Assembly (NCBI GenBank): GCA_046543235.1
Contig: JBKGZT010000040.1
Span: 1 to 12,023, forward strand
Source of the DNA: Candidatus Acetothermia bacterium
GTDB taxonomy: Bacteria > Bipolaricaulota > Bipolaricaulia > M55B111
Length of the DNA stretch: 12,023 nt
Direction: 5' to 3'
Shown: piece after piece, positions 1 to 12,023 of the stretch
Numbering within the stretch: the first letter of the stretch is position 1
How the letters are laid out: every line of letters starts with the position of its first letter
Translations under genes and position numbers: made by a program
Notes under the pieces: generated by a model
What the model was told of the DNA's origin: nothing
The model's input: only the letters and a program-made list of their open reading frames with translations
Databases searched by the model: none

Positions 1-626
1 TGGAATCGAAGTTTGAGGAATTCGTTAAAGAGGGTGGGTACCTGGTTGGAACTTTCAGGGCGGGAATTAAAGATTTCGATAACCACGTCACGGACGAAAC
101 CTTCCCGGGACGTCTGTCGGAGATGTTCGGGATAGAAATACACGAATTCAGCCCCGTCAATGAAAAACCTGAAGTGAGCCTAGCCAGTTTGCGGGAGGAC
201 GGGGAGTCTTACTCTGCAGTCGATTGGGTTGACTGCATTGAGACTAAAGAGGCGGAATCTCTGGCCGATTACGAGAAGGGCTGGCCTGCTGATAAAGGTT
301 TCGCGGGAGTGTCCAGAAACGAGTACGGTGAAGGAGTTGCTTATTACGTCGGACTTGCAGGTGAAGAGGATCTCTATAGTGACTTAATTTCGTACCTACT
401 GGAAAATACGGACGTAGAGTCTATCTTATCTAGCCCTGAAAACGTAGAAGTGAGGGAAAGGGTAGATCCCGAAACGGGAGCGAAGCTGGTTTTCATGGTA
501 AATCATTCACCCGAACAAAAATCCGTCAGTGTAGACGGAAACTACTGGGATCTGATCAGCTCAAAAACCGTTACCGAGGACACGGAACTTGAAGGCTTTG
601 GCGTAATGATCCTGAAGGAAAAATAG
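1..626 (+). CDS. GH42 beta-galactosidase, C-terminal part (trimerisation and C-terminal domains); 5'-truncated by the window edge
   Basis: The frame is open from position 3 (ESKFEEFVKEGGYLVGTFRAGIKDFDNHVTDETFPGRLSEMFGIEIHEF...), so ATG 123 is internal. FVKEGG..V..FRAG.KD....PG.L...FG, NEYGEGVAYYVG and FMVNHS...LEGFGVMIL match the GH42 C-terminal pattern. Galactose gene context supports the call. Confidence 0.85.
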   Translation, partial: ESKFEEFVKEGGYLVGTFRAGIKDFDNHVTDETFPGRLSEMFGIEIHEFSPVNEKPEVSLASLREDGESYSAVDWVDCIETKEAESLADYEKGWPADKGFAGVSRNEYGEGVAYYVGLAGEEDLYSDLISYLLENTDVESILSSPENVEVRERVDPETGAKLVFMVNHSPEQKSVSVDGNYWDLISSKTVTEDTELEGFGVMILKEK

Positions 627-693
627 TACGGATCCGCCGGAGGCCTAATACAGCTGATCAGTTTCGGGTCCGAAACAAGGTGAGCGTTTTGTA

Positions 694-2049
694 ATGTCTA
701 AGCCAAAAATCACTGTAATTGGTGCAGGTAGTTTCTTCACGAATGCCTGGGTCCGGGATGTTACCCTGTCCAAGGATCTGGATAAAGGGACTTTTGCCTT
801 TATTGACATCGACAGGGAAAGACTGAGCCTCTCGACAAAGATGGCCGAGAAGCTAATTTCGGATGTTGGTTCCAATTGGGAGGTTATTGCCTCGACGGAC
901 AGGCGGGAACTTCTTCCCGGCAGCGATTACCTGATCAATACTATCGAAGTCGCCGGGCTGGAGAACGTCAGGAAGGACTACGAGATTCCGAAGAAGTACG
1001 GCGTGGATCAATGCATAGGCGATACCACGGGTCCGGGTGGGATAATGAAGGCCTTTCGGACGATCCCGACGTGGCTGGATATCCTGGAAGATGCGGAGGA
1101 GCTCTGCCCTGATGCTCTTGTCTTGAACTATACAAACCCGATGCACATGATGACGATGGCAGCAAACGAGGTTTCGGATATGGAAGTAGTCGGGCTCTGC
1201 CATTCGGTTCAGGGCACCTCCAGACAGCTGGCGGGTTACCTGGAAGTTCCCTATGAAGAACTGGAATGGGAGTGCGCGGGGATAAACCACATGAGCTGGT
1301 TTACGAAACTCGAACACGAAGGTCGGGACCTCTATCCGGAACTTCTGAGAAGAGCCGAACAGCCTGAAATATACGAACAGGACCCGATAAGATTCGAGAT
1401 GACTAAGGAATTTGGCTATTTCGTCACCGAATCCAGCGGCCATTTCTCCGAGTACCTGCCTTACTTCAGAAAGGATCCGGACCTGATCGATAAGTACTGT
1501 GGCGAAGGTTATCGGGGAGAAAGCGGTTTTTATTCCAGGAATTGGCCGGATTGGCGCCGTGATCTTGATGAATTTCGGGAAAAGTGGATAGCTGGAGAGG
1601 AGATACCGGACGGGATCACGGAAGGTACACCCGGTCTCGAGGATTTTGACCCGGCAGAAAGGAGCTACGAATACGGTTCTCATATTATAGAGGCCCAAGA
1701 AACCGGCAAGGAGGCGGTGATATACGGCAATTTCCCGAATGAAGGACTAATAGACAACCTGCCGGGCGACGGGATAGTTGAAGTCAAGACGCTCGTAGAT
1801 CGAAGCGGTTTCCATCCTTGCAAGTTTGGCAGGTTACCGGAGGAGCTCGCGGGGTTGAACCGTTCAAATATGACTGTGCATAAGTTAACCGTTGAGTCAA
1901 TCCTAAATAAAGACCGTGAAGCAGGGATTCGTGCGTTCATGCTGGATCCTCTTACGGCCGCGGTTTCCACTCCTTCGAGTGTCAGGAATATGGTGGAAGA
2001 ACTCTTTGAGGCGGAAAGCGAGTACATACCGGATTATCTTACGGAATAA
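694..2049 (+). CDS. melA: GH4 family NAD+/Mn2+-dependent alpha-galactosidase (melibiase)
   Basis: Rossmann motif ITVIGAGS plus GH4 motifs DQCIGDTTGPGG, LNYTNP, VVGLCHS, AGINHMSW and TESSGHFSEY; lies next to the Leloir genes. Exact substrate specificity is inferred from context. Confidence 0.85.
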   Translation: MSKPKITVIGAGSFFTNAWVRDVTLSKDLDKGTFAFIDIDRERLSLSTKMAEKLISDVGSNWEVIASTDRRELLPGSDYLINTIEVAGLENVRKDYEIPKKYGVDQCIGDTTGPGGIMKAFRTIPTWLDILEDAEELCPDALVLNYTNPMHMMTMAANEVSDMEVVGLCHSVQGTSRQLAGYLEVPYEELEWECAGINHMSWFTKLEHEGRDLYPELLRRAEQPEIYEQDPIRFEMTKEFGYFVTESSGHFSEYLPYFRKDPDLIDKYCGEGYRGESGFYSRNWPDWRRDLDEFREKWIAGEEIPDGITEGTPGLEDFDPAERSYEYGSHIIEAQETGKEAVIYGNFPNEGLIDNLPGDGIVEVKTLVDRSGFHPCKFGRLPEELAGLNRSNMTVHKLTVESILNKDREAGIRAFMLDPLTAAVSTPSSVRNMVEELFEAESEYIPDYLTE

Positions 2050-2095
2050 ACGGCTCTTTGCCTTCGGATGTTTTACTGAAGTGGAGTGAATCAAT

Positions 2096-3136
2096 TTGAT
2101 CGAATCCAGATGCTGGGGCGAAAACGATGGAGTGCCGGTAACGCTCTATAAGTTAACCAACGACCAGGGAGCTACCCTGGAAGTTACCAACTATGGCGGA
2201 CGGGTGACCTCCCTGAAGGTTCCTGGGCCGGAGGGAGAACCGGTCGACGTAGTACTCGGATTTGACGATCTTGAGAGCTACCTGGAGGACGAGCACTACG
2301 TCGGGGCGATCGTCGGCCGATACGCCAACAGGATAGCAGGAGGCAAATTTAGCCTTGACGGTTCTACTTACCAGCTTACCCGCAACGAGGGTGACCATCA
2401 CCTGCACGGCGGTCGGCTCGGTTTCCACGACCGGATCTGGCGGGCTAAGCCCGTAAGGACGGATCGCGGTCCGGGATTAGTATTGCGTTACTTAAGCGAG
2501 GACGGCGAAGAGGGTTACCCGGGGAATTTGAGCGTCAGAGCGACTTACTTGTTGACTGATGAGAACGAGTTCCAGTTTACTTTTGAAGCAGCTACGGATC
2601 GTCCGACGATAGTTAATATCTCTCAACATAATTACTACAATTTGTCGGGAATGAATAAGAAGATAAATGACCACAGGTTGACCGTAAATGCGGAGAGTTT
2701 TACGCCGGTAAATCCGGAAGGAATTCCCTTCGGGGAAACCAAAGCGGTCGAAGGGACGCCCTTTGACTTTCGAGAACCACGGCGAATTGGAAGCGGATTG
2801 GATAACGAAGATCTTCAGCTGGAGTACGGAGAGGGCTACGATCATAACTTCGTCCTGGAGGAGGGCGCGGATTCCGCGGCGGAGCTTATTTCGCCCGATT
2901 CGGGGATAACCTTGAATCTGGTCACGGATCAACCGGGGTTGCAGGTTTACTCCGGGAATTACCTTGAAGAAGGGCTAAATGGAAAGGGCGGGGCTACTTA
3001 TGGTCCACGAGGCGGACTCTGCCTCGAGCCAGGGAACTTCCCTAACGCTCCTAACCAGGAGAACTTTCCCGATCCGGTTATCAGGCCAGGTGAGCAGTAC
3101 GAAACGAACAGCGTGATTCGATTTGGTACGGAGTGA
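2096..3136 (+). CDS. galM: Aldose 1-epimerase (galactose mutarotase)
   Basis: Motifs GAIVGRYANRI, NEGDHHLHGG, GEEGYPG, QHNYYNL, GYDHNF, TDQPGLQVYSGN and LCLE. TTG start with GGAG at 2083-2086. Confidence 0.93.
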   Translation: MIESRCWGENDGVPVTLYKLTNDQGATLEVTNYGGRVTSLKVPGPEGEPVDVVLGFDDLESYLEDEHYVGAIVGRYANRIAGGKFSLDGSTYQLTRNEGDHHLHGGRLGFHDRIWRAKPVRTDRGPGLVLRYLSEDGEEGYPGNLSVRATYLLTDENEFQFTFEAATDRPTIVNISQHNYYNLSGMNKKINDHRLTVNAESFTPVNPEGIPFGETKAVEGTPFDFREPRRIGSGLDNEDLQLEYGEGYDHNFVLEEGADSAAELISPDSGITLNLVTDQPGLQVYSGNYLEEGLNGKGGATYGPRGGLCLEPGNFPNAPNQENFPDPVIRPGEQYETNSVIRFGTE

Positions 3137-3169
3137 TTTGAGATTTGCCCGGAGTTCAAGGAGAAGATC

Positions 3170-3199
3170 GATCGGCTTCAAAGCCGAGTCAAATTTTTT
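3170..3199 (+). terminator. Possible weak intrinsic terminator or hairpin after galM
   Basis: TCGGCT-TCAA-AGCCGA stem (3172-3187), then GTCAAA and TTTTTT. The T-tract is offset from the stem, so this is tentative. Confidence 0.3.
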
Positions 3200-3235
3200 C
3201 GAGTGAGAGTCCGAAAATGCTCTTAGAGGTAAGAA

Positions 3236-3352
3236 ATGAACGAGAACTTTGACGAGAAGAGGATAGGTGGTCTGGAGAAAAAGATGTCCAAAAAAGAGGA
3301 CGGAAGGATAATTATATACTACGAGAGAAACCTCGATAGGGAGGAAGACTAG
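3236..3352 (+). CDS. Small 38-aa protein coupled to galT (MNENFDEKRIGGLEKKMSKKEDGRIIIYYERNLDREED), not in the ORF track
   Basis: SD GAGGT (3226-3230) lies 5 nt before ATG 3236. Stop TAG 3350-3352 overlaps the galT GTG (TAGTG). The KEDGRIIIYY motif resembles the DGRELIY[YF] N-terminal segment of actinobacterial GalT. Confidence 0.7.
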   Translation: MNENFDEKRIGGLEKKMSKKEDGRIIIYYERNLDREED

Positions 3353-4320
3353 TGCCGGAACTGCGCTGGAACCCGATTCTGAGACGGTGGAACATAATAT
3401 CGGACAAGAGACAGGACCGGCCCGTTTTGCCGGAGGATAGCTGTCCGCTCTGTCCCGGCGTGCTGGAAGTTCCTCAGGATGATTACTACATCGTTACCTT
3501 TGAAAACAGGTTTCCGGCCCTCGAACGAAATCCGAAGGAACCGAACGTAGAAGGAGATTCTCTTTACAGGGTACGCAAAAACATAGGAGTCTGTGAAGTC
3601 ATTCTATATTCTCCCGAACACGACGTTCCTCCGGCCGAGCTGAGCCTGGATAGGTTGGATGACCTGATAACAGTCTGGCGGGACAGGTTTGCTGAGCTTT
3701 CGGAGGAGAAATTCATAGATTACGTCTATATCTTCGAGAACCGGGGGCGGGAAATTGGAGTTACCCTGGATCACCCTCATGGTCAGCTCTATGCCTTTCC
3801 GTTCGTGCCGCCGCTCCCCCGACGATCACTGGAAAGCGCCAGGGACCATTACGAGGCGAAGGGAGAGTGCCTGTTCTGTCGAGTGATGGAAAAGGAGAAG
3901 GATTTCGAGGATAGAATTATCTGGGAAAACGAGGACTTCCTGGCCTTCGTCCCCTTTTACGCCAGGTTTCCCTACGAGGTACATCTGTATCCCAGGCGTC
4001 ACTTTCCGACGATGCTCGGCCTGAAGAAGGGGGAGGAAAGATCCCTGGCAAAGGGGCTAAAGACCGTACTGAACAGTTACAGGAACCTGTTTCCGATCGA
4101 GGATTTTCCCTACATAACAAGCTTTCATCAGGCTCCCGTGGACGGAAATGAATACCCTTTCTTCCATTTTCACCTCGAGTTTTACTCGCTGCAGCGGGCA
4201 AAAGACAAGATAAAATACCGAGCTGGAGTTGAAACCGGAACGTCGACCTTCATCTCCTCGATTTCTCCTGAGAAGATGGCCGCCGACCTGAGAGAAGCAG
4301 ACTCCGGGACCGGCGAGTGA
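3352..4320 (+). CDS. galT: Galactose-1-phosphate uridylyltransferase (class I, HIT superfamily)
   Basis: ELRWNP...RQDRP, Zn site CPLCPG, FENRFP, FENRG.EIGVTLDHPHGQ (HxHxQ catalytic motif) and CLFC. GTG start with SD GGGAGG at 3339-3344. Confidence 0.95.
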   Translation: MPELRWNPILRRWNIISDKRQDRPVLPEDSCPLCPGVLEVPQDDYYIVTFENRFPALERNPKEPNVEGDSLYRVRKNIGVCEVILYSPEHDVPPAELSLDRLDDLITVWRDRFAELSEEKFIDYVYIFENRGREIGVTLDHPHGQLYAFPFVPPLPRRSLESARDHYEAKGECLFCRVMEKEKDFEDRIIWENEDFLAFVPFYARFPYEVHLYPRRHFPTMLGLKKGEERSLAKGLKTVLNSYRNLFPIEDFPYITSFHQAPVDGNEYPFFHFHLEFYSLQRAKDKIKYRAGVETGTSTFISSISPEKMAADLREADSGTGE

Positions 4321-4327
4321 GGGGCCG

Positions 4328-5503
4328 ATGGATTTAAAAGACCTGAAGAGGGATTTTCGGAAAAGATACGGCTCCGGCAAAAGTCCTAAAGCCTACAGGG
4401 CCCCCGGCAGGGTCAACCTGATCGGGGAACATACCGACTACAACGGGGGGCTCGTCCTGCCAATTGCCGTCAATCTATCGACGTGGGTACTGGCGAGAAA
4501 GAACTCCCGGGATTCGATCCGGCTTTACTCGGCCAACCTGGATGAAGCCGGGGAGATCGAGCTCGGCGGGAAAATACGAAAGACGGAAGGCTGGACGGAT
4601 TACGTCCGTGGGATAATTTCCGGGCTAGATGAAGGGGATCGGGAGTTGCTTTCCGGGCTAGATTTCTATTTGGCCTCCGAGGTTCCGGTAGGAAGGGGCC
4701 TGTCGAGCTCGGCCGCGCTCGAGCTATCCGTGGCTACTGCCTTGAGCGAGGAGTTCGGCCTCGGCCTGGAAGGGCTGGAACTGATCCGTCTCTGTCAGAT
4801 GGCGGAAAACGACTTCGTCGGGGCCAACACCGGGATCATGGATCAGTACGTCTCCTATTACGGGAAGGAAGAGACGGCCCTGCTGATAGATACCTCCCGG
4901 CCTTCCCATGAATACGTAAATCTAGACCTCTCTGGATACGAAATCCTGGTCCTCGATACGACCGTCTCGCATACTCACGGGGGAAGCGAATACAACCAGC
5001 GCCGGGCCGAGTGCGAGGAGGCCCTGGAGTTGCTCAAAGAGGCCGACCGTTACAGGGACCTTGAATCCCTCAGCCGGCTCGATCCGGAGGACCTGGGGTT
5101 CGTCCGATCGGCCCTTCCGGAAAAGCTGGCGAACAGGGTCAGCCACGTGGTGGAGGAAAACCTGAGGGTGAAGCGGTCCGCCGATTACCTTACAGAAGGG
5201 GAAATCGAGAAAGCAGGGGAACTGTTTTTTCAGTCCCACCACAGCCTGAAGGAGCAATACGAGGTTAGCTGTGAGGAACTGGATTTCCTGGTGGAGTTCG
5301 CCCGCCGTGAGGGAGTTCCCGGCGCCCGGATGACGGGAGGGGGTTTTGGTGGAGCCTCGGTCCAGGTGGTTCCGGAAGAAAGCTCGGAAGAGTACCTGAG
5401 GGACTCCAAAAAGGAGTACCGGAAGGAGTTCGGAATCGAGCCCGAGGGGTTCTTCGTATTCCCGAGCGACGGCGTAAAAGCCGATATTGCCGGGAATGGT
5501 TAG
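4328..5503 (+). CDS. galK: Galactokinase (GHMP family)
   Basis: Motifs APGRVNLIGEHTDYNGG, PVGRGLSSSAALE, GIMDQY, YNQRRAEC, YEVSCEELD and GARMTGGGFGG; starts 7 nt after galT. Confidence 0.96.
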   Translation: MDLKDLKRDFRKRYGSGKSPKAYRAPGRVNLIGEHTDYNGGLVLPIAVNLSTWVLARKNSRDSIRLYSANLDEAGEIELGGKIRKTEGWTDYVRGIISGLDEGDRELLSGLDFYLASEVPVGRGLSSSAALELSVATALSEEFGLGLEGLELIRLCQMAENDFVGANTGIMDQYVSYYGKEETALLIDTSRPSHEYVNLDLSGYEILVLDTTVSHTHGGSEYNQRRAECEEALELLKEADRYRDLESLSRLDPEDLGFVRSALPEKLANRVSHVVEENLRVKRSADYLTEGEIEKAGELFFQSHHSLKEQYEVSCEELDFLVEFARREGVPGARMTGGGFGGASVQVVPEESSEEYLRDSKKEYRKEFGIEPEGFFVFPSDGVKADIAGNG

Positions 5504-5542
5504 GAGGCGCGGTGTTTGCTGTAGGTTTTTCAGGGTTTTTAA

Positions 5543-5638
5543 GTAGCCGGGAAGACTCCTTGCGCGGGTTCCTCAAAACTCCCTCGCTGGCGTTCTGTCA
5601 GGCATGTGCGGACCCTCGCAAGGAGTCTTCCCGGCTGC
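5543..5638 (+). repeat. ~96-nt imperfect palindromic intergenic element, copy 1
   Basis: GTAGCCGGGAAGACTCCTTGCG (5543-5564) pairs with CGCAAGGAGTCTTCCCGGCTGC (5617-5638): 22 bp with one G-U. After a C/T mismatch come 6 bp GGGTTC/GGACCC and a 38-nt loop with an inner CTGGC/GTCAG hairpin. About 74/96 identity to copy 2 by manual alignment. Confidence 0.9.
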
Positions 5639-5657
5639 CCGTAACGGATCGTAAAAG

Positions 5658-5680
5658 GTGAAAAAGTTGAGCTTTTTCAT
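5658..5680. other. AT-rich inverted repeat TGAAAAAG-N5-CTTTTTCA (hairpin or operator)
   Basis: Perfect 8-bp arms at 5659-5666 and 5672-5679; function unknown. Confidence 0.4.
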
Positions 5681-5730
5681 TATTGGCTTCTTTCCCTGAG
5701 CCTTACCCCAATATTTCGCCTCGAAAGACC

Positions 5731-5762
5731 CGCGCGGCTTGTAAGGAGGCCGCGCGTTGATT
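5731..5762 (+). terminator. GC-rich hairpin, possible terminator of the gal transcript
   Basis: CGCGCGGCTT-GTAAGG-AGGCCGCGCG 10-bp stem (one G-U) followed by TTGATT, a poor U-tract. Confidence 0.4.
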
Positions 5763-5835
5763 ACCCTCTAATAAGTGAAAACTTGAGTATTTATATCAAC
5801 ATTTGTTTAAGATAGAGAGAGGAGGAATTTGAAAA

Positions 5836-6063
5836 ATGATTACTGAAGAAGAAGTAGAAGACGCCCTTGACGAAGTCAGGCCCTCGATTCAGGCCGACGG
5901 TGGAGACGTGATCCTGGACGAAATTACCGAAGATAACGTGGTTAAAGTGCAGCTGGTAGGTGCCTGCGTCGGTTGTCCGATGTCTACGATGACGCTGAAG
6001 CAGGGAGTCGAGAAGGTCCTTGAGGCAAATATTCCCGAGATAAAAGAAGTAAAGGCAGTTTGA
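5836..6063 (+). CDS. Nfu/NifU C-terminal-domain Fe-S cluster carrier protein
   Basis: VRPSIQADGGDV and LVGACVGCPMSTMTLKQGVE (GACxxC motif); SD GGAGG at 5821-5825. Confidence 0.93.
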   Translation: MITEEEVEDALDEVRPSIQADGGDVILDEITEDNVVKVQLVGACVGCPMSTMTLKQGVEKVLEANIPEIKEVKAV

Positions 6064-6077
6064 CTCCATCGCATAAG

Positions 6078-6106
6078 TTGACCATCTCCAATTAGTATCG
6101 TACGCT
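6078..6106 (+). promoter_or_regulatory. Putative sigma70 promoter for ssb
   Basis: TTGACC (6078-6083) - 17 nt - TACGCT (6101-6106), upstream of SD GAGGT (6118-6122) and ATG 6131. Confidence 0.6.
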
Positions 6107-6130
6107 TAAAAAAAACTGAGGTGGGAAGAG

Positions 6131-6568
6131 ATGGCTGCAAGTCTTAACCAGGTTATTTTAATTGGAAACCTGACGGAAGACCCGGAGCTTCAGTATACCC
6201 AGTCCGGCGTGGCGAGAACGACCTTTACGATTGCTGTAAATCGGCAGTACCGCGACAGCAACGATGAACTGCAGGAAGACACCACCTTCGTCCCGATTAC
6301 CACATGGCGCAATCAGGCCGAAAACTGTGCCACCTACCTGAGCAAAGGGAGGCCGGTTGCAGTAACCGGGAGGTTGAGGATTTCGAACTACGAGGACGAC
6401 GAAGGCAATAACCGTAAGTGGACCAGCGTGGTCGCAAACAACGTTCAGTTCCTCGGATTCGGTCAGGACAGGGACTCTCAGGGGGGCGGCCAGAAGTCAC
6501 CTCCGGAAAAACCGGAATCGGAGGGTTCCGGTAAGACGTCCGACGACGACGAGGAAATTCCCTTTTAA
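6131..6568 (+). CDS. ssb: Single-stranded DNA-binding protein
   Basis: LNQVILIGNLTEDPELQYT, YLSKGRPVAVTGRL OB-fold, a G/Q/P linker and the acidic C-terminal tail DDDEEIPF. Confidence 0.97.
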   Translation: MAASLNQVILIGNLTEDPELQYTQSGVARTTFTIAVNRQYRDSNDELQEDTTFVPITTWRNQAENCATYLSKGRPVAVTGRLRISNYEDDEGNNRKWTSVVANNVQFLGFGQDRDSQGGGQKSPPEKPESEGSGKTSDDDEEIPF

Positions 6569-6599
6569 CCTTATTTCGTCTTTTAAAGATCCATTCTAG

Positions 6600-6692
6600 G
6601 TAGCAGGGTAGACTGTTTCTCGGGTTCCTCAAACTCCTTTGATGGCTCTTGGTCAGGCATATATAGACCCAAGAAGGAGTCTACCCGGCTGC
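6600..6692 (+). repeat. ~93-nt imperfect palindromic intergenic element, copy 2
   Basis: GTAGCAGGGTAGACTGTTTCTCGGGTT (6600-6626) pairs with GACCCAAGAAGGAGTCTACCCGGCTGC (6666-6692) with 3 mismatches. It shares CGGGTTCCTCAAA, CTCC, TGGC, GTCAGGCAT, GACCC, AAGGAGTCT and CCCGGCTGC with copy 1, in the same orientation. Confidence 0.9.
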
Positions 6693-6783
6693 TATTTAAA
6701 AATTAGTTTCTAAATTACGTTTTGGCGAAGGGTTGAGTTTAATTTCCTCTCCGTGGCTTAAGGTAGAGGGCCAGAAAACGAAG

Positions 6784-7968
6784 TTAGCGCAACTCGTCCA
6801 TCAACTTCGAACCGATCTCGCCGGGTAGCGTCTTCAAGATTGTAGTCACGACGGTGGGATCCTTTATCATTTTTTTTGCCAGCGGATAGAGGTGGTCAAT
6901 CTCCCCGTTGCGTGATATCCAGCTGGCGATTTCTTCTCGCTTCAACAAACTCAGAAGCCTCGTTAATCTTTTGTCCGAGACCCGATCCAGGATTCGGTGC
7001 AGCAACATTTCTCTCTTCAGTTCTTCTCCGACCTCATTCATCCACCTGTCGTAGTAGACCCTTCCGGGCTTTTCTAGGCCGTTCACGGCTTCGATCGCGA
7101 CTTCCCCGGCGATCCTGGCGGTTATCGATAGCGGGTATATCCCACCTCCGGATGTCGGTTTGACCTGCCCTGCCGCGTCGCCAACCGTGAGGACGCCGTT
7201 TTTGCAGGGAGACTCGGGTACCCCGATCGGAATTACTCCGGTTCTGAATGCGTCCGTAGGTTCTATTCCGATCTTTTCCGCCAGATTGGCAAAAAGATGC
7301 TTTATCCTTTCCCCCCGGCTCGTAGCCAAACCTATGCGCGCCCTGTTCCTCGATACCGGGATAATCCAGCCGAAAAATCCTGGAGCGAGGTCTTTGCCGA
7401 AGAAGACTTCCACGAAGTCGGACCTGCGGGAAGTAAACTCCGTTTCCTCCTGAATTGCGTAGAGCAACTTGGAGGGCCTCTCCAGTGCGAATAGCCTCCT
7501 GACGTCGCTTCGGGGTCCGTCGGCACCTATTATCACCCGGGGCTCGAGTCTCTCTTCTTCGGAACCATCCACCGATCGAATCGTGACGCTCCTGTCGTCT
7601 CGACGGTATATACCCGTTCCTGTCTTTACTTTTACCCCTTTTTTCTTTGCCCTGGTTGCCAGGTCCGCGTTTAATTCGTCCCTGTCGATCACGTAGGCTT
7701 TCGTTTCGGGAGCGGAAAGATCGAAGCTTTCACCTTCCGGTGGATGAACGAAGACTCCCCGTATCTCGTTTTCTATGACTTGGTCCGATGCTCCCAATCT
7801 CTCCCAGGTCTCCAGGCTGACGAGACCGCCGCAGGCACTGGATTCCGCCAGGTCGGTTTTCTTGTCGATCAAGAGCGTGTCGGCGCCCCCTTCGGCAGAC
7901 ACCCTTCCGGTAATGGAACCTGCAGGACCGCCACCGACGACGAGAACCTGTGGTTTACGATTTACCAT
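6784..7968 (-). CDS. Geranylgeranyl reductase family FAD-dependent oxidoreductase
   Basis: Motifs VLVVGGGPAGS, ACGGLVS, YVIDRDELNADLA, IIGADGPRS, APGFFGWIIP and VGDAAGQVKPTSGGGI. Confidence 0.88.
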   Translation of the reverse strand: MVNRKPQVLVVGGGPAGSITGRVSAEGGADTLLIDKKTDLAESSACGGLVSLETWERLGASDQVIENEIRGVFVHPPEGESFDLSAPETKAYVIDRDELNADLATRAKKKGVKVKTGTGIYRRDDRSVTIRSVDGSEEERLEPRVIIGADGPRSDVRRLFALERPSKLLYAIQEETEFTSRRSDFVEVFFGKDLAPGFFGWIIPVSRNRARIGLATSRGERIKHLFANLAEKIGIEPTDAFRTGVIPIGVPESPCKNGVLTVGDAAGQVKPTSGGGIYPLSITARIAGEVAIEAVNGLEKPGRVYYDRWMNEVGEELKREMLLHRILDRVSDKRLTRLLSLLKREEIASWISRNGEIDHLYPLAKKMIKDPTVVTTILKTLPGEIGSKLMDELR

Positions 7969-7969
7969 G

Positions 7970-8881
7970 TTACCACCTTAAAAACAAGTTTACTTTACTT
8001 TCCGAAACGCCCGTTTTACGGAGAAATTCCAGGCCGAGCTCCACTTCTCCGTGGTAGCCCAGAAAAACCCCCCTCCAGCCACCCCTCAGCCCGGTGGAGG
8101 TGTAACCGATGCTTAACCTCTCACCTTTCAGCTGGAGCGACAGGCGCTCGAAACGGAGTTCGTCGAATAAGAAAGACAGGTTACTATTTTCGTAGTCTAC
8201 CCTCGTGGCCATTGCAAGGCTAGGAGTTTCCTCGAGAAAATCCAAGGAAAGTCCCTGGGTCCAACTCAGGCGGTTCTCACCCACGGTAAATTGTCTTCCT
8301 CCCGAAAGGTTCAAGTAGCTATCTCTCGGGTATTTACGGCCTATTCTGCCCACCCTGTAGAGGTGGCTGAAGTCCGAATCTTTCGTGGAGGGAAACCAGA
8401 AGTCCGACTCGGGCCCGGGATTGGATAGGCCCAGTTCGTAGTTTAAACCTAGCTTTCCGACCGAGAAGGAACCGTCCCCGCTTAGCCTATAACCGGAACC
8501 GCTTAGCCAGACCCCCGTGTCCGCGGAAAGAGCCCAACCACCGATTTGGTAGTCGAGGTAAGAAGCCTCAAGCCCGGCCGCGATCCTAGTTGACTGGAGG
8601 TCCTGACCGGATTCAAAAAGTCCGGATACAAACGGACGGAACTCCCAGTTTTCCGGCGCAGGTAGGGTTTCCTCGCTCAGGGACAGACCGAGGCCGTATT
8701 CTCCCTGAAGCGTCCTGGTCAGCCCTAGGGTTTGATCGCTAAAGTTTACTTCCCCGAGAAATGTGGCACCGGAAGGTCCGAAAGAAAGCCTCGCTTCTCC
8801 CGTAACCGTAGGGGAAAACCCGAACAAGACTAAAAGGAAGGTTAGCAGTCCGGAGAGGGTTTTAACTCTTAACGATTTCAT
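7970..8881 (-). CDS. Hypothetical exported protein, possible outer-membrane beta-barrel
   Basis: 303 aa. Signal-peptide-like N-terminus (MKSLRVK-hydrophobic core-VTG), G/S/aromatic-rich alternating strands and C-terminal VNLFLRW. Its stop lies 1 nt before the reductase ATG. Confidence 0.65.
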   Translation of the reverse strand: MKSLRVKTLSGLLTFLLVLFGFSPTVTGEARLSFGPSGATFLGEVNFSDQTLGLTRTLQGEYGLGLSLSEETLPAPENWEFRPFVSGLFESGQDLQSTRIAAGLEASYLDYQIGGWALSADTGVWLSGSGYRLSGDGSFSVGKLGLNYELGLSNPGPESDFWFPSTKDSDFSHLYRVGRIGRKYPRDSYLNLSGGRQFTVGENRLSWTQGLSLDFLEETPSLAMATRVDYENSNLSFLFDELRFERLSLQLKGERLSIGYTSTGLRGGWRGVFLGYHGEVELGLEFLRKTGVSESKVNLFLRW

Positions 8882-8911
8882 CGCCCCTGCCCTTGGAGTT
8901 CCAATTCCGTG

Positions 8912-9952
8912 TCAACTCCTTTCCGCCTCTTCAGCCCTTTCCTTACGCTTTTCGAACAATAGGTTCATTATCCCGTAGTGCGCCAGGAGGGCAAGGCCTA
9001 AACCCACCAGGACGAACTGGATGGATTTAATCGCGAAGGAATAAGCCACGGCTTCACTTCCGCTTACTCCGAATAACGCGTATATACCGATGTAACCTCC
9101 TTCGGAAACCCCTATTCCACCCGGCGTAATCCAGAAAAACGAAGACATCACCGATATCATCGCAAAAAGCATCGTCAGCTCCGCGATCGTAAACACCCGT
9201 CCCTGGGTGAAGTAAAAGTAAATCAGTGGTCTGATGAACATAAAGAAGGTTGCCACCAGGTCGAGGACCAGTGCAACTACGGTGTGTCTGATGTGCTTGC
9301 CGAATGCCATGCTTATCTCTTTTTCCAGATGTCTGATCCCGTCTTCGGCCTTCTGGAGGACTTCGGTCCAGGGTAATTTACGTTTTAGAAAAGCCGTAAA
9401 CCTCGAGAAGATGAAGACCTTTTTGGAAAAATTCAGGATAAGGGCCGTCAGTAGAACGAGGAAGAGGAGCGAAATCAGGATCAGGTAAAGCATCATGTCC
9501 GTCGGTATCTGGCTGTAGATCGTCAGCATTGCGCCGATCAGTATTGCGGAAACGAGTGCCGCCATCATGGTTATCCGCTCGGCGACGATCGTCGCGAAGA
9601 TCCTGCTGTAGGAGGAATCGCTTTCCCGTTCTAATACCAGGGCCCTTACCGGCTCGCCTCCGAAGTGCATGGACGGGGTCAGGTAGCTGACGGCAAAACT
9701 CCCTATGCGTGCCCAGAAGCTCAGCAGATAAGGGGCCTTTACGCCGTAGCCTTTCATGATAACTATCCAGGCGACCGTCCAGAAGAAAAAGGTTAGAAGT
9801 ATCGCCGAAATCATCGTTATGAAGCCGTCCCAGCCCAGAGCAGAAAACTGGTTGAGTACCTTCTTGGGGCCAATAAAGCTGAGTATTGCCCCTAGTATCG
9901 CTATGCCGAGGATTATGGATATTATCGTCGTAGTTTTGCGACTTGTGCTCAA
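8912..9952 (-). CDS. UPF0104 / lysylphosphatidylglycerol synthase TM-domain (flippase-like) membrane protein
   Basis: Multiple TM helices; family motifs SYLTPSMHFGGEPVR, TIVAER and ITPGGIGVSEG. TTG start preceded by GGGAGGT on the - strand. Confidence 0.85.
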   Translation of the reverse strand: MSTSRKTTTIISIILGIAILGAILSFIGPKKVLNQFSALGWDGFITMISAILLTFFFWTVAWIVIMKGYGVKAPYLLSFWARIGSFAVSYLTPSMHFGGEPVRALVLERESDSSYSRIFATIVAERITMMAALVSAILIGAMLTIYSQIPTDMMLYLILISLLFLVLLTALILNFSKKVFIFSRFTAFLKRKLPWTEVLQKAEDGIRHLEKEISMAFGKHIRHTVVALVLDLVATFFMFIRPLIYFYFTQGRVFTIAELTMLFAMISVMSSFFWITPGGIGVSEGGYIGIYALFGVSGSEAVAYSFAIKSIQFVLVGLGLALLAHYGIMNLLFEKRKERAEEAERS

Positions 9953-9984
9953 ACGTACCTCCCAGACCTACGGTTCTAACTCAG

Positions 9985-10013
9985 TTGTACAAGGCTAACG
10001 GATACTTTATACT
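9985..10013 (+). promoter_or_regulatory. Putative sigma70 promoter for hflKC
   Basis: TTGTAC (9985-9990) - 17 nt - TATACT (10008-10013). Confidence 0.6.
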
Positions 10014-10020
10014 TTAGCAA
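9992..10020 (-). promoter_or_regulatory. Putative sigma70 promoter for the flippase-like/exported protein/GGR operon
   Basis: On the - strand: TTGCTA (10020-10015) - 17 nt - TAGCCT (9997-9992). Confidence 0.45.
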
Positions 10021-10044
10021 TATTCCCTAATACAGGGGTGGATT

Positions 10045-11061
10045 ATGCCTGAAAACTACGATTTTGACAGGGGAGACCGCCGTGGCAGAACCGACTGGGA
10101 TAGATTCAAAAGGAGTTTTAAGAAATTTGGCGACAAAGCAGGTTGGGTTATAGTTGGTCTGGTAGCAATAATCTACCTGCTGCAGGGAGTTTACCAGGTC
10201 GGACCGTCCGAAGTCGGTCTGGTAAGGAGGTTTGGTAAGCACGTTAGGACGGTAAATTCCGGTTTGAACTATCACCTACCCCCGCCGATAGAGATAGTAG
10301 ACAAGGTCGACGTAAGGTCCGTGCGAAAGGTGGAAATCGGATATGAGACCATCTCGCCGCCCCCAAACCCGCAATACCGGGTAGATGATAAAGAAGCGCT
10401 CATGCTAACCGGGGACGACAATATAGTTCACATGGAACTCGCAATTCAGTTCACCGTGGTGGATGCCGAGAAGTTTGCTTTTAACATTATAGAGCCCTAC
10501 TCCTTGGTAAAGGAATCTGGAGAGGCGGTTATCCGGGAGGAAGCGGTTAAACATACCGTAGAGGAGGTTCTTACTATCCAGAGAGCGGAAATCGCGAACC
10601 AAACTCAGGTGGAGTTACAGAAACTGCTCGATGAGTACGATGCGGGAATCAACATCGAAGTGGTCAAGATACAGGACGCCAGACCCCCGGAGCCTGTTGA
10701 ACCTGCTTTTGACGATGTCACCAGTGCCAAGGAGGACAAGAACACGAAGATCAACCAGGCGGAAGCCTATGCAAACGACGTCATACCAAATGCTCGAGGT
10801 CAGGCTACGGAAATACTCAACCAGGCGGAGGCCACAAAGGCAGAACGAGTCAACGAAGCGGAAGGTGACGTAAGCAAGTTCCTCCAGGTCCTGGAGGAAT
10901 ACGGACAGGGGAGCCAGGAGGTAACGAGGAGACGTCTCTACATGGAGACGATGGAGGAGATCTTACCAGAAATGAAGAAGGTTATCCTTACCGATTCTAC
11001 CGACGGTTCCTCGGTTCTAAAACTTCTGAACCTGTCCGAGCTGGAAGGTGAGAGCAAATGA
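10045..11061 (+). CDS. hflK: FtsH protease modulator HflK (SPFH domain)
   Basis: N-terminal TM plus GLVRRFGK, GLNYHLPPPIE, MLTGDDNIV, PPEPVEPAFDDV, AEAYANDVIPNARGQA and VTRRRLYMETMEEIL. Confidence 0.95.
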   Translation: MPENYDFDRGDRRGRTDWDRFKRSFKKFGDKAGWVIVGLVAIIYLLQGVYQVGPSEVGLVRRFGKHVRTVNSGLNYHLPPPIEIVDKVDVRSVRKVEIGYETISPPPNPQYRVDDKEALMLTGDDNIVHMELAIQFTVVDAEKFAFNIIEPYSLVKESGEAVIREEAVKHTVEEVLTIQRAEIANQTQVELQKLLDEYDAGINIEVVKIQDARPPEPVEPAFDDVTSAKEDKNTKINQAEAYANDVIPNARGQATEILNQAEATKAERVNEAEGDVSKFLQVLEEYGQGSQEVTRRRLYMETMEEILPEMKKVILTDSTDGSSVLKLLNLSELEGESK

Positions 11062-11960
11062 GAAAACTGGGTTGGTTCGTCGGGATATTGGTCGTACTCG
11101 TCATCTTGTTCAACCTCTTTACCTTTATCGTGCCCGAAACCGAACAGGCCATAATAGTTCAATATGGCGACATAAAACAGGTGGCAACCGAGCCCGGACT
11201 TTACTTCAAGATACCTTTCATTCAGTCGGTGGAACATATGGAGGCTCGATTGCTCTCCTACGATATACAACCTAGGGAGTTGATTACGGCGGATCAGCGG
11301 CGTCTGTCCGTGAATAATTACGCCGTCTGGAAGATAGAGGATCCCCGTCAGTTCAAGAAATCCCTCAATGCTAGTCTGGGTACGGCTCAGACCAGGATAG
11401 ATGACATCCTTTACTCGGACCTGAGGAACGTCCTGGCCAGTCGCGAATTCGACGAGATCGCTTCCGAGGAAAGAGAGAAAATGCTGAATGATATTACGAA
11501 AACCAGCGGGGAAAAGCTGGAGGAGTACGGGATTGAGCTGGTGGACGCCAAAATAAAGCGGGCGGATTTGCCACAAGACAACGAGCAGGCCGTATTCGAT
11601 AGGATGATCTCCGAGAGGGAAAGACGTGCTTCCCAGCTCCGGGCCGAAGGTGAAGAAGAGGAGAAGGAAATCGAATCGGAGGCGGATAGGCGGAGCAGCG
11701 TCCTCGTGGCGGAAGCCAGGAACGAGGCCGAATCCATCCAGGGTGAAGGGGAAGCGGAAGCGCTACAAATTTACGCCGATGCCTACAGTCAGGACGTCGA
11801 GTTCTACGAGTTCTGGCGAAAGCTTGCTTCCTACAGGGAGTCCTTCCCGGGGGAGGAGTCCACTATATTGATTTCTCCGGATTCCCAGTACTTGAGGTTG
11901 CTTTCCGAAGGGGTAACTGAGGGACTAAAGGAAAAGGAAGAATCCGGTGAAAACGGTTAG
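11058..11960 (+). CDS. hflC: FtsH protease modulator HflC (SPFH domain)
   Basis: N-terminal TM plus EPGLYFKIPFIQ, IKRADLP, VFDRMISER, GEGEAEA..IYADAY and FYEFWR; ATGA overlap with hflK. Confidence 0.95.
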   Translation: MRKLGWFVGILVVLVILFNLFTFIVPETEQAIIVQYGDIKQVATEPGLYFKIPFIQSVEHMEARLLSYDIQPRELITADQRRLSVNNYAVWKIEDPRQFKKSLNASLGTAQTRIDDILYSDLRNVLASREFDEIASEEREKMLNDITKTSGEKLEEYGIELVDAKIKRADLPQDNEQAVFDRMISERERRASQLRAEGEEEEKEIESEADRRSSVLVAEARNEAESIQGEGEAEALQIYADAYSQDVEFYEFWRKLASYRESFPGEESTILISPDSQYLRLLSEGVTEGLKEKEESGENG

Positions 11961-11984
11961 CGGGCGGCGCTTTGCTCGATTGTC

Positions 11985-12023
11985 AAGACCCTCCCGAGAA
12001 GTTCGGGAGGGTTTTCGTATTTT
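11985..12023 (+). terminator. Rho-independent terminator after hflC
   Basis: ACCCTCCCGA (11988-11997) - GAAGT - TCGGGAGGGT (12003-12012), followed by TTTCGTATTTT. Confidence 0.85.

Follow-up and report, generated by a model that had tools for sequence, protein, structure and literature searches.

Conserved hairpins past stop codons in a Candidatus Acetothermia contig, a possible new family of dispersed extragenic palindromes

A stretch of 12,023 nucleotides (nt) from a Candidatus Acetothermia bacterium (GenBank assembly GCA_046543235.1, contig JBKGZT010000040.1, positions 1 to 12,023 of the forward strand; the window hereafter) carries two copies of a hairpin of 93-96 nt, each in a short spacer past a stop codon, and a third copy is found in a metagenome-assembled genome (MAG) labelled 'uncultured Thermotogae bacterium'. 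The element is a real, selected and unannotated hairpin. There is firm evidence that it folds as a single strand and that some factor recognises it, and a putative kind of binding partner is proposed below. The explanation preferred here, with about even confidence, is that the copies belong to a new family of dispersed extragenic palindromes (ERIC/REPIN-like), which would act as hairpins of the 3' untranslated region (3'-UTR) or of RNA 3' ends and whose conserved apical core would bind some factor. This report describes the three copies, their sites and the explanations that compete for them.

Fold, relatives and conservation of the element

The two window copies lie on the + strand at 5543-5638 (copy 1, the whole hairpin being 96 nt) and 6600-6692 (copy 2, 93 nt). 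A sequence-only reading of the window had taken them for copies in the same orientation with about 77% identity (74/96), and this is borne out both by the alignment, in which 74 of the 96 columns are identical and three are gap columns, and by a blastn search of the remaining window with copy 1, in which copy 2 comes up at 77.1% identity (E 4e-14) and the first unrelated match only at E 0.43. Both copies are rods with an outer stem of 21-22 bp. Folded as RNA, copy 1 has a minimum free energy of -62.4 kcal/mol (z -8.6) and copy 2 one of -40.4 kcal/mol (z -4.0), none of 200 shuffles of either copy folds as well as the native sequence (0/200 and 0/200), and a covariance model scores them at 115 and 99 bits, respectively. 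Terminal inverted repeats, as in bacterial MITEs of the Correia, RUP and ERIC type, are present: the inverted arms are 25 nt long and 96% complementary in copy 1 (I1) and 24 nt long and 83% complementary in copy 2, while the third copy has 20 perfectly paired positions. In addition, the two longest non-overlapping (non-palindromic) inverted repeats of the window, I1 and I3, lie in the two copies. The element ends read GTAGC...GCTGC in the window and CGAGC...GCTCG in the third copy, so that the GTAG at the 5' end of both window copies is replaced there by CGAG.

In copy 1 the outer helix P1 is formed by a 22-nt 5' arm that starts with GTAG (5543-5564) and a 22-nt 3' arm (5617-5638) that includes a GGAG invariant in the three copies. 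Helix P2 joins GGGTT (5566-5570) to GACCC (5611-5615), and it is followed by a 12-nt unpaired pyrimidine-rich block, CCTCAAAACTCC (5571-5582), and by the apical part (5583-5610), which consists of the proposed helix P3 (5583-5587 with 5606-5610), helix P4 (TGGC, 5588-5591, with GTCA, 5597-5600), a variable 5-nt loop (5592-5596) and an invariant GGCAT bulge (5601-5605). The corresponding parts of copy 2 are the P1 arms at 6600-6620 and 6672-6692, P2 at 6622-6626 with 6666-6670, the bulge at 6627-6637, P4 at 6643-6646 with 6652-6655 and GGCAT at 6656-6660; all of these are given on the + strand. The inner hairpin TGGC-N5-GTCA with its variable loop, which the sequence-only reading had pointed out, is present in both copies. 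The unpaired C of that reading is present too, but it faces an unpaired U in copy 1 or A in copy 2 and thus belongs to a 1x1 internal loop and not to a bulge. For the inner core the proposed structure depends on the model: RNAalifold, RNAfold and a manual model each give a different fold.

Relatives were sought by an exact-pattern scan of 185,579 species genomes (596 Gb) with a pattern from the unpaired blocks that specified 22 bases. The scan gave five matches, about three chance matches being expected by arithmetic. One of them, the only match in its genome, lies on a 3,494-nt contig (L005) of the MAG labelled 'uncultured Thermotogae bacterium' and is a true relative: this third copy (L005:1813-1905, 93 nt) scores 68.4 bits with E 7e-12 against a covariance model built from the two window copies alone. 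The matches in all other genomes of the collection are the four unrelated ones, L001-L004, which were rejected as copies and treated as chance because no stem flanks them and the covariance model gives no hit there. Since the window's own sequence is absent from the matches, its source genome lies outside the 185,579-genome collection. An unfiltered covariance model run over the window and the five loci (31.7 kb) found no copies beyond the known three, and a mismatch-tolerant motif search of the window found no further copies apart from one 3-mismatch match to the core motif inside the GH42 gene. This 16-nt match, at window 8-23 (-), with 0.19 expected by chance, is one arm of the inverted repeat I4, whose partner is at 6613-6635, and it is likely a coincidence.

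The sequence-only reading had recognised no known family in the element, and the database checks agree with it. At the gathering scores of Rfam 15 none of the 4227 families matches the window, and in L005 only two tRNAs are found; at E up to 10 copy 1 gives only sub-threshold microRNA hairpins (best 28.8 bits, gathering 100) and copy 2 gives none. No match between the element and an insertion sequence (IS) end was found, and nothing has emerged in support of the ribozyme that had been suggested. Likenesses to SRP RNA domain IV, Y RNA, the 11-nt receptor and the hammerhead and twister cores were dropped after the Rfam scans alone. Moreover, blastn of copy 1 gives only chance matches among plasmids and phages (E about 0.8-0.9) and no match among 5,426 E. 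coli genomes. No paper came up in a full-text literature search for four strings from the core, written as DNA and as RNA, a keyword search of the literature found no description of the element, and a 2026 preprint on noncoding clusters contains neither 'Thermotog' nor 'palindrom'.

The fold can also be judged by comparing the three copies, although so small a number does not permit covariation to be tested statistically; their pairs were counted on a model-guided alignment that leans towards the model's structure. The 36 proposed pairs are paired in 90.6% of their cells, and double-sided compensatory changes occur at 12 of them, a number that none of 500 column shuffles reaches; in a control in which the partners were slid by 1-3 columns, 0-3 such pairs are found. 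The outer helix (P1 + P2) has 10 of its 27 pairs changed on both sides, with 94.9% of cells paired. The remaining two compensatory pairs are in P3, which is only 66.7% paired, and the four P4 pairs (TGGC/GTCA) show no covariation. All of the compensatory stem changes named in the sequence-only reading are present in the alignment: A5552-T5629 is replaced by T6609-A6683 and GCG/CGC by CT/AG, the gaps in the two arms (alignment columns 20 and 77) being paired with each other.

Conservation is distributed in the opposite way to pairing, and the claim that the unpaired blocks are better conserved than parts of the stem has proved correct. Over the three copies 11 of 12 positions are invariant in the pyrimidine-rich block CCUCAAA(A)CUCC, in which there is one A indel, and 5 of 5 in the GGCAU bulge, against only 20 of 44 in the P1 arms; the short helices P2 (9/10) and P4 (7/8) are nearly invariant as well, while P3 (3/10) and the hairpin loop (1/5) are not. 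Between copy 1 and the L005 copy the core (columns 23-74) is identical at 46 of 52 positions and the arms at 25 of 44; for copy 1 and copy 2 the figures are 39 of 52 and 35 of 44, respectively. Therefore, selection acts on pairing in the stem and on sequence in the apical core. The earlier proposal of selection on both fold and loop sequence receives strong support from the third copy: with it, 12 of 36 pairs show double changes and the bulges are invariant.

Two observations on the sequence of the core may be added. CUCC occurs in the 5' arm and again in the invariant bulge (copy 1, 5543-5638; L005, 1813-1905), and the GGAG of the 3' arm is kept in all three copies, even though in copy 2 the bases opposite it have changed (G.G and U.G), so the bulge may pair with the 3' arm instead. 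Furthermore, when the sequences are read by eye, the invariant CAT is an ATG on the minus strand, where mini-ORFs (small open reading frames) of 10, 25 and 18 codons with a common MPD..P..EF are found in copy 1 (5604-5575), copy 2 (6662-6585) and L005 (1874-1818), respectively. The mini-ORF is probably not a gene: it is frameshifted by the A indel in copy 1 and extends into the variable stem.

As to the strand, the three G-U pairs that had been noted as forming on the + strand are there (U2.G95, U28.G69 and G48.U56), and five independent + strand G.U positions were counted in all, namely U28.G69, G44.U65 and G48.U56 (3/3), U2.G95 (both window copies) and U17.G80 (copy 2), beside one A.C cell. 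Folded as RNA, the + strand is slightly better than the - strand in both window copies (-62.4 versus -60.4 kcal/mol in copy 1, -40.4 versus -37.1 kcal/mol in copy 2), and in L005 the minus strand is slightly better than the element's own strand (-56.9 versus -55.2 kcal/mol). With DNA parameters neither strand is preferred, and both fold stably (z -3.6 to -7.8).

Sites and orientation of the copies

In the two genomes the copies follow galK, ssb and a gcvT-like gene, which are three sites that are not orthologous. All three lie 31-49 nt past a stop codon, between tandem or convergent genes, and beside genes that are functionally unrelated. In the window, where the sequence-only reading had let the copies start about 30-40 nt after stop codons, the distances are indeed 39 nt between the galK stop codon (5501-5503) and copy 1 and 31 nt between the ssb stop codon (6566-6568) and copy 2; in L005, 49 nt separate the stop codon of the gcvT-like gene from the element. 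Copy 2 lies in a 215-nt spacer between the 3' end of ssb and the 3' end of the convergent geranylgeranyl-reductase-family gene. No U-tract follows copy 1, as had been claimed, and UAUUU follows copy 2. By consensus scan no own promoter was found upstream of any copy.

The L005 contig carries phoU (-), rnc (+), tRNA-Arg (+) and tRNA-Leu (-), then a run of N (1683-1692), and past the run a second, partial tRNA-Leu 5' half with a promoter-like site, the element and the gcvT-like gene (-). As the gcvT-like gene is on the minus strand, the element is antisense to the gene that it follows. On the gcvT strand CUUUGGUUUUUGG stands directly after the stem, and to judge from its sequence the hairpin together with this tail looks like a terminator on that strand; before the element on its own strand no promoter-like (sigma-70-like) site was found. 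A further copy, such as the sequence-only reading had proposed to look for, does exist, and the orientation of the copies to transcription is not uniform, two being sense and one antisense.

Homologous sequence stands on either side of the N-run (1481-1682 versus 1693-2025): the tRNA-Leu 5' halves are identical over 32 nt, the promoters are similar and the 3' ends of the gcvT-like genes at the two loci are about 80% alike. At locus A the gcvT-like stop codon abuts the tRNA promoter and there is no element, and at locus B there are 185 extra nt, made up of the 93-nt element and about 46 nt on each side. Because locus A lacks the element that is present at locus B, the element appears dispensable and polymorphic. 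The two loci could be two strains, paralogues or an assembly artefact.

Dispersed palindrome or dedicated RNA

The family proposed here is of the same kind as ERIC, REPIN/REP and Correia elements and is homologous to none of them. The reading as a dispersed repeat is favoured by the unrelated neighbour genes, by the occurrence in both orientations and by the homologous site without the element; the RNA and DNA folds, with their small strand preference, also suit it. The element would accordingly be presumed mobile. The sequence-only reading had left the choice between a structured RNA and a REP/MITE-like element; the premise that both share, selection, stands, while the strand-specific RNA part is weakened, since the L005 copy is antisense to its gene and has the U-rich tail on the opposite strand, and the dispersed-repeat alternative is now favoured.

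Extragenic palindromes are described as lying mostly downstream of ORFs, between tandem and convergent genes, with G.T pairs that suggest an RNA role, and REPs as being 20-40 bp long with stems of mostly 6-9 bp, GTAG being the tag of RAYT-type REPs (PMC3733652). REPINs are described as long hairpins in single-stranded DNA or mRNA with compensatory changes on the two sides, in which the ends (inverted REPs) are conserved and the spacer is least conserved (PMC3116915). The long RNA stem of Correia elements is a proposed RNase III substrate, the elements are co-transcribed with neighbouring genes, and ERIC is credited with an orientation-dependent effect on the stability of neighbouring mRNA and is tabulated with TA termini and target-site duplications (PMC2229807, Table 1).

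Like ERIC (enterobacterial repetitive intergenic consensus, or IRU, 127-bp imperfect palindromes), the present element is a non-coding imperfect palindrome of about 100 nt in presumably transcribed intergenic space with a long RNA stem-loop, occurs in either orientation and is conserved in sequence across genomes; unlike ERIC, to which it shows no sequence similarity by blastn against the E. coli genomes, it shows no TA termini or target-site duplication and belongs to another host lineage. With REPIN/REP, as these are described in the two sources on them (PMC3116915, PMC3733652), it shares an extragenic hairpin of roughly 90-100 nt, compensatory changes and the position downstream of ORFs, and two of the three copies start with GTAG, which beside CGTC is one of the terminal tetranucleotides expected of REPs; the GTAG counts as one event, since the two window copies are paralogues, and is a lead only. 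Whereas REPs, going by the same description, are short units at the ends, the element is a single hairpin of 93-96 nt with a stem of 21-22 bp. Correia (NEMIS) elements of Neisseria are likewise small palindromic repeats, and the 21-22 bp stem is in principle long enough for RNase III, but of their 24-bp terminal inverted repeats, TA duplication, IHF site and abundance none was found for the element.

If the element is a dispersed palindrome, the following course may be proposed. A copy would sit in a short spacer past a stop codon and be transcribed, presumably, with the neighbouring gene; the transcript would fold into an RNA rod, the outer stem of which (21-22 bp) is maintained by compensatory change. 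The rod would most likely be a 3'-end structure, that is, a barrier to 3' exonucleases and, where a U-rich tail follows, a terminator, and it may be an RNase III substrate. The asymmetric apical core, with its 12-nt pyrimidine-rich bulge, its GGCAU bulge and its two short invariant helices, is under selection for its sequence and is probably the docking site of a protein, which may be the past spreader of the element as folded single-stranded DNA or else an RNA-binding factor.

Several points weigh against a dispersed palindrome. The indel in L005 is 185 nt and not the bare 93-nt hairpin, its junction is not clean, and in a scaffold with a 10-N run the 'empty site' could be an effect of the assembly or of a deletion. 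Neither target-site duplications nor TA ends were found at any of the three copies when their flanks were read and compared, and the flanks show no consistent similarity, for which reason a larger repeat unit extending beyond the hairpin was rejected. The copy number looks low, to judge from the exact-pattern scan with its single match in the L005 genome; the 12-kb window has two copies. REPINs occur in tens to hundreds of copies and with a RAYT (Y1 transposase) gene flanked by the repeats. Among the ORFs scanned with Pfam, that is, 12 of the 47 in the window (the long, non-nested ones) and 4 of the 15 in L005, there is no transposase, RAYT, integrase, recombinase or reverse transcriptase, and hence none of the RAYT, IS110 or other recombinase genes that the sequence-only reading had proposed to look for beside the copies was seen; the absence of a RAYT from these 15.5 kb is not decisive, because RAYTs are described as typically single-copy per genome (PMC5581495). 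The L005 copy does not have the GTAG, and its divergence shows a pattern opposite to that of REPINs as described in PMC3116915: there the ends are conserved, and here conservation is highest in the apical core, with arms that vary between genomes. Finally, the five G.U positions out of six G.U and A.C positions, which do not amount to a significant excess, are suggestive of one functional strand.

The last point leads to the rival that is taken most seriously, although it is put forward tentatively, namely a dedicated, non-mobile structured RNA. Such an RNA would act in cis within the 3'-UTR or be a small RNA derived from it, and its rod would offer a specific protein two invariant single-stranded blocks, or else its C/U-rich block (CCUC, CUCC) would pair with Shine-Dalgarno-like sequences in trans. 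It remains a serious rival because the core is more conserved than the arms and because of the G.U bias: the stems covary (12 of 36 pairs) and the arms fall to 25/44 between genomes while the bulges and two short helices stay invariant, and the conserved + strand G.U pairs stand beside a single A.C cell. The apparently low copy number, the two of three copies that are sense and within 40 nt of a stop codon, and the slightly better folding of the + strand in both window copies also suit such an RNA. Against it stand the L005 copy, which is antisense to the only gene that it follows, folds slightly better on the minus strand and was found to have no sigma-70-like promoter upstream on its own strand, the functionally unrelated nature of the three neighbour genes and a homologous site that does without the element. 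Moreover, the P4 pairs never vary and P3 is two-thirds paired, so the fold of the core has little covariation support, and no Rfam match appears even at E up to 10, with three sequences only to compare. A more doubtful variant is a structured RNA of a class not described before, in which a covarying rod exposes CCUCAAACUCC and GGCAU and the outer stem is a mere scaffold; it might be a 3'-UTR protein-binding module, or a small regulatory or catalytic RNA in which the C/U-rich block pairs with ribosome-binding sites.

It is improbable that the element is in the first place a target which a recombinase or an HUH/tyrosine transposase recognises as folded single-stranded DNA, as with REP/RAYT, IS200/IS605 ends or attC, any effect on RNA being incidental. 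In favour of this, the hairpin has unpaired bases of specific sequence, and its stem is free to vary; the DNA folds are stable on both strands, the window copies bear the GTAG tag, L005 has homologous sites of which one is with and one without the element, and the window copies, in the same orientation, flank a two-gene segment of the nifU-like gene and ssb (5639-6599). Against it, no recombinase or transposase gene was seen among the ORFs scanned in the 12 kb and 3.5 kb, the element is far longer than REPs, and its ends show no attC R''/R' boxes when compared by eye with the consensus. The nifU-ssb segment, too, was rejected as a mobile cassette: its composition is ordinary (GC 0.50-0.54 versus 0.52 for the window), and there are no boundary duplications. 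Integron attC sites have inverse core and core boxes at their ends, extrahelical bases and a variable apical part and go with an integrase or a cassette array. The element was rejected as an attC, since it has no GTT-type core box, its apical part is conserved and no integrase is found among the ORFs scanned.

Very improbable is the explanation that the copies are ordinary intrinsic terminators or stabiliser hairpins which are alike through local duplication and have no special function in the core. Like intrinsic terminators they are GC-rich hairpins with very stable stems placed just after stop codons, and in two of three cases a U-rich tail follows on the transcribed strand, UAUUU after copy 2 and the tail on the gcvT strand in L005. 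Unlike them the element is 93-96 nt long and has a conserved, structured apical region of 52 nt, and a plain terminator gives no reason for a core that is 46/52 identical between genomes while the stem diverges to 25/44. Copy 1, in addition, has no U-tract and is followed by a separate AU-rich hairpin with a U-rich tail (5660-5678). A consensus terminator scan lists none of the three copies, and its loop limit of 3-8 nt would exclude such hairpins anyway.

As a dispersed palindrome, the element would add a family from a poorly sampled lineage, with its closest relative in a MAG labelled Thermotogae, and its invariant asymmetric core with free-running arms, the inverse of REPINs and MITEs, would point to an undescribed mode of recognition. 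As a dedicated RNA, it would be a compact new motif of about 95 nt with sequence-specific bulges. With either reading the element marks the 3' ends of genes, and it is worth annotating because long perfect stems break assemblies and confuse gene callers.

Other features of the window

The window begins with a galactose-utilisation cluster on the + strand, which comprises the C-terminus of a GH42 gene (3-626), GH4 (694-2049), aldose 1-epimerase (2096-3136), galT (3352-4320) and, as its last gene, galK for galactokinase (4328-5503). After copy 1 follow a NifU-like gene (5836-6063, +), which precedes ssb, and ssb itself (6131-6568, +). The SSB protein scores higher against the PDB entries 1se8 and 6bhw than against 1z9f. 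On the minus strand there are the geranylgeranyl-reductase-family gene (6784-7968), a gene for an unnamed protein of 303 amino acids, P0001 (7970-8881), and a gene for a flippase-like membrane protein (8912-9952), and two Band-7 genes on the + strand are the last in the window. ARAGORN found no tRNA in the window.

The 332-nt spacer between galK and the nifU-like gene contains two further hairpins 3' of copy 1. The first of these, an AU-rich hairpin at 5660-5678 (GAAAAAG/CTTTTTC), is followed by a U-rich tail, CAUUAUUGGCUUCUUU, and is a possible true terminator of the gal cluster. The second, at 5729-5756, has a GC-rich 10-bp stem, and its loop contains AAGGAGG.

P0001, whose gene lies between the geranylgeranyl-reductase-family and flippase-like genes, has no match in Pfam or NCBIfam; it has a signal-like hydrophobic N-terminus, is rich in Gly, Ser and Leu and ends in ...LFLRW, and by eye its sequence looks like that of an outer-membrane beta-barrel. 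In the gal cluster galT is preceded by a 215-nt gap (3137-3351), its ORF opens with a GTG codon, and the Pfam profile of the N-terminal domain is matched only from position 35 onwards; its start may be mis-set or its N-terminus may have diverged.

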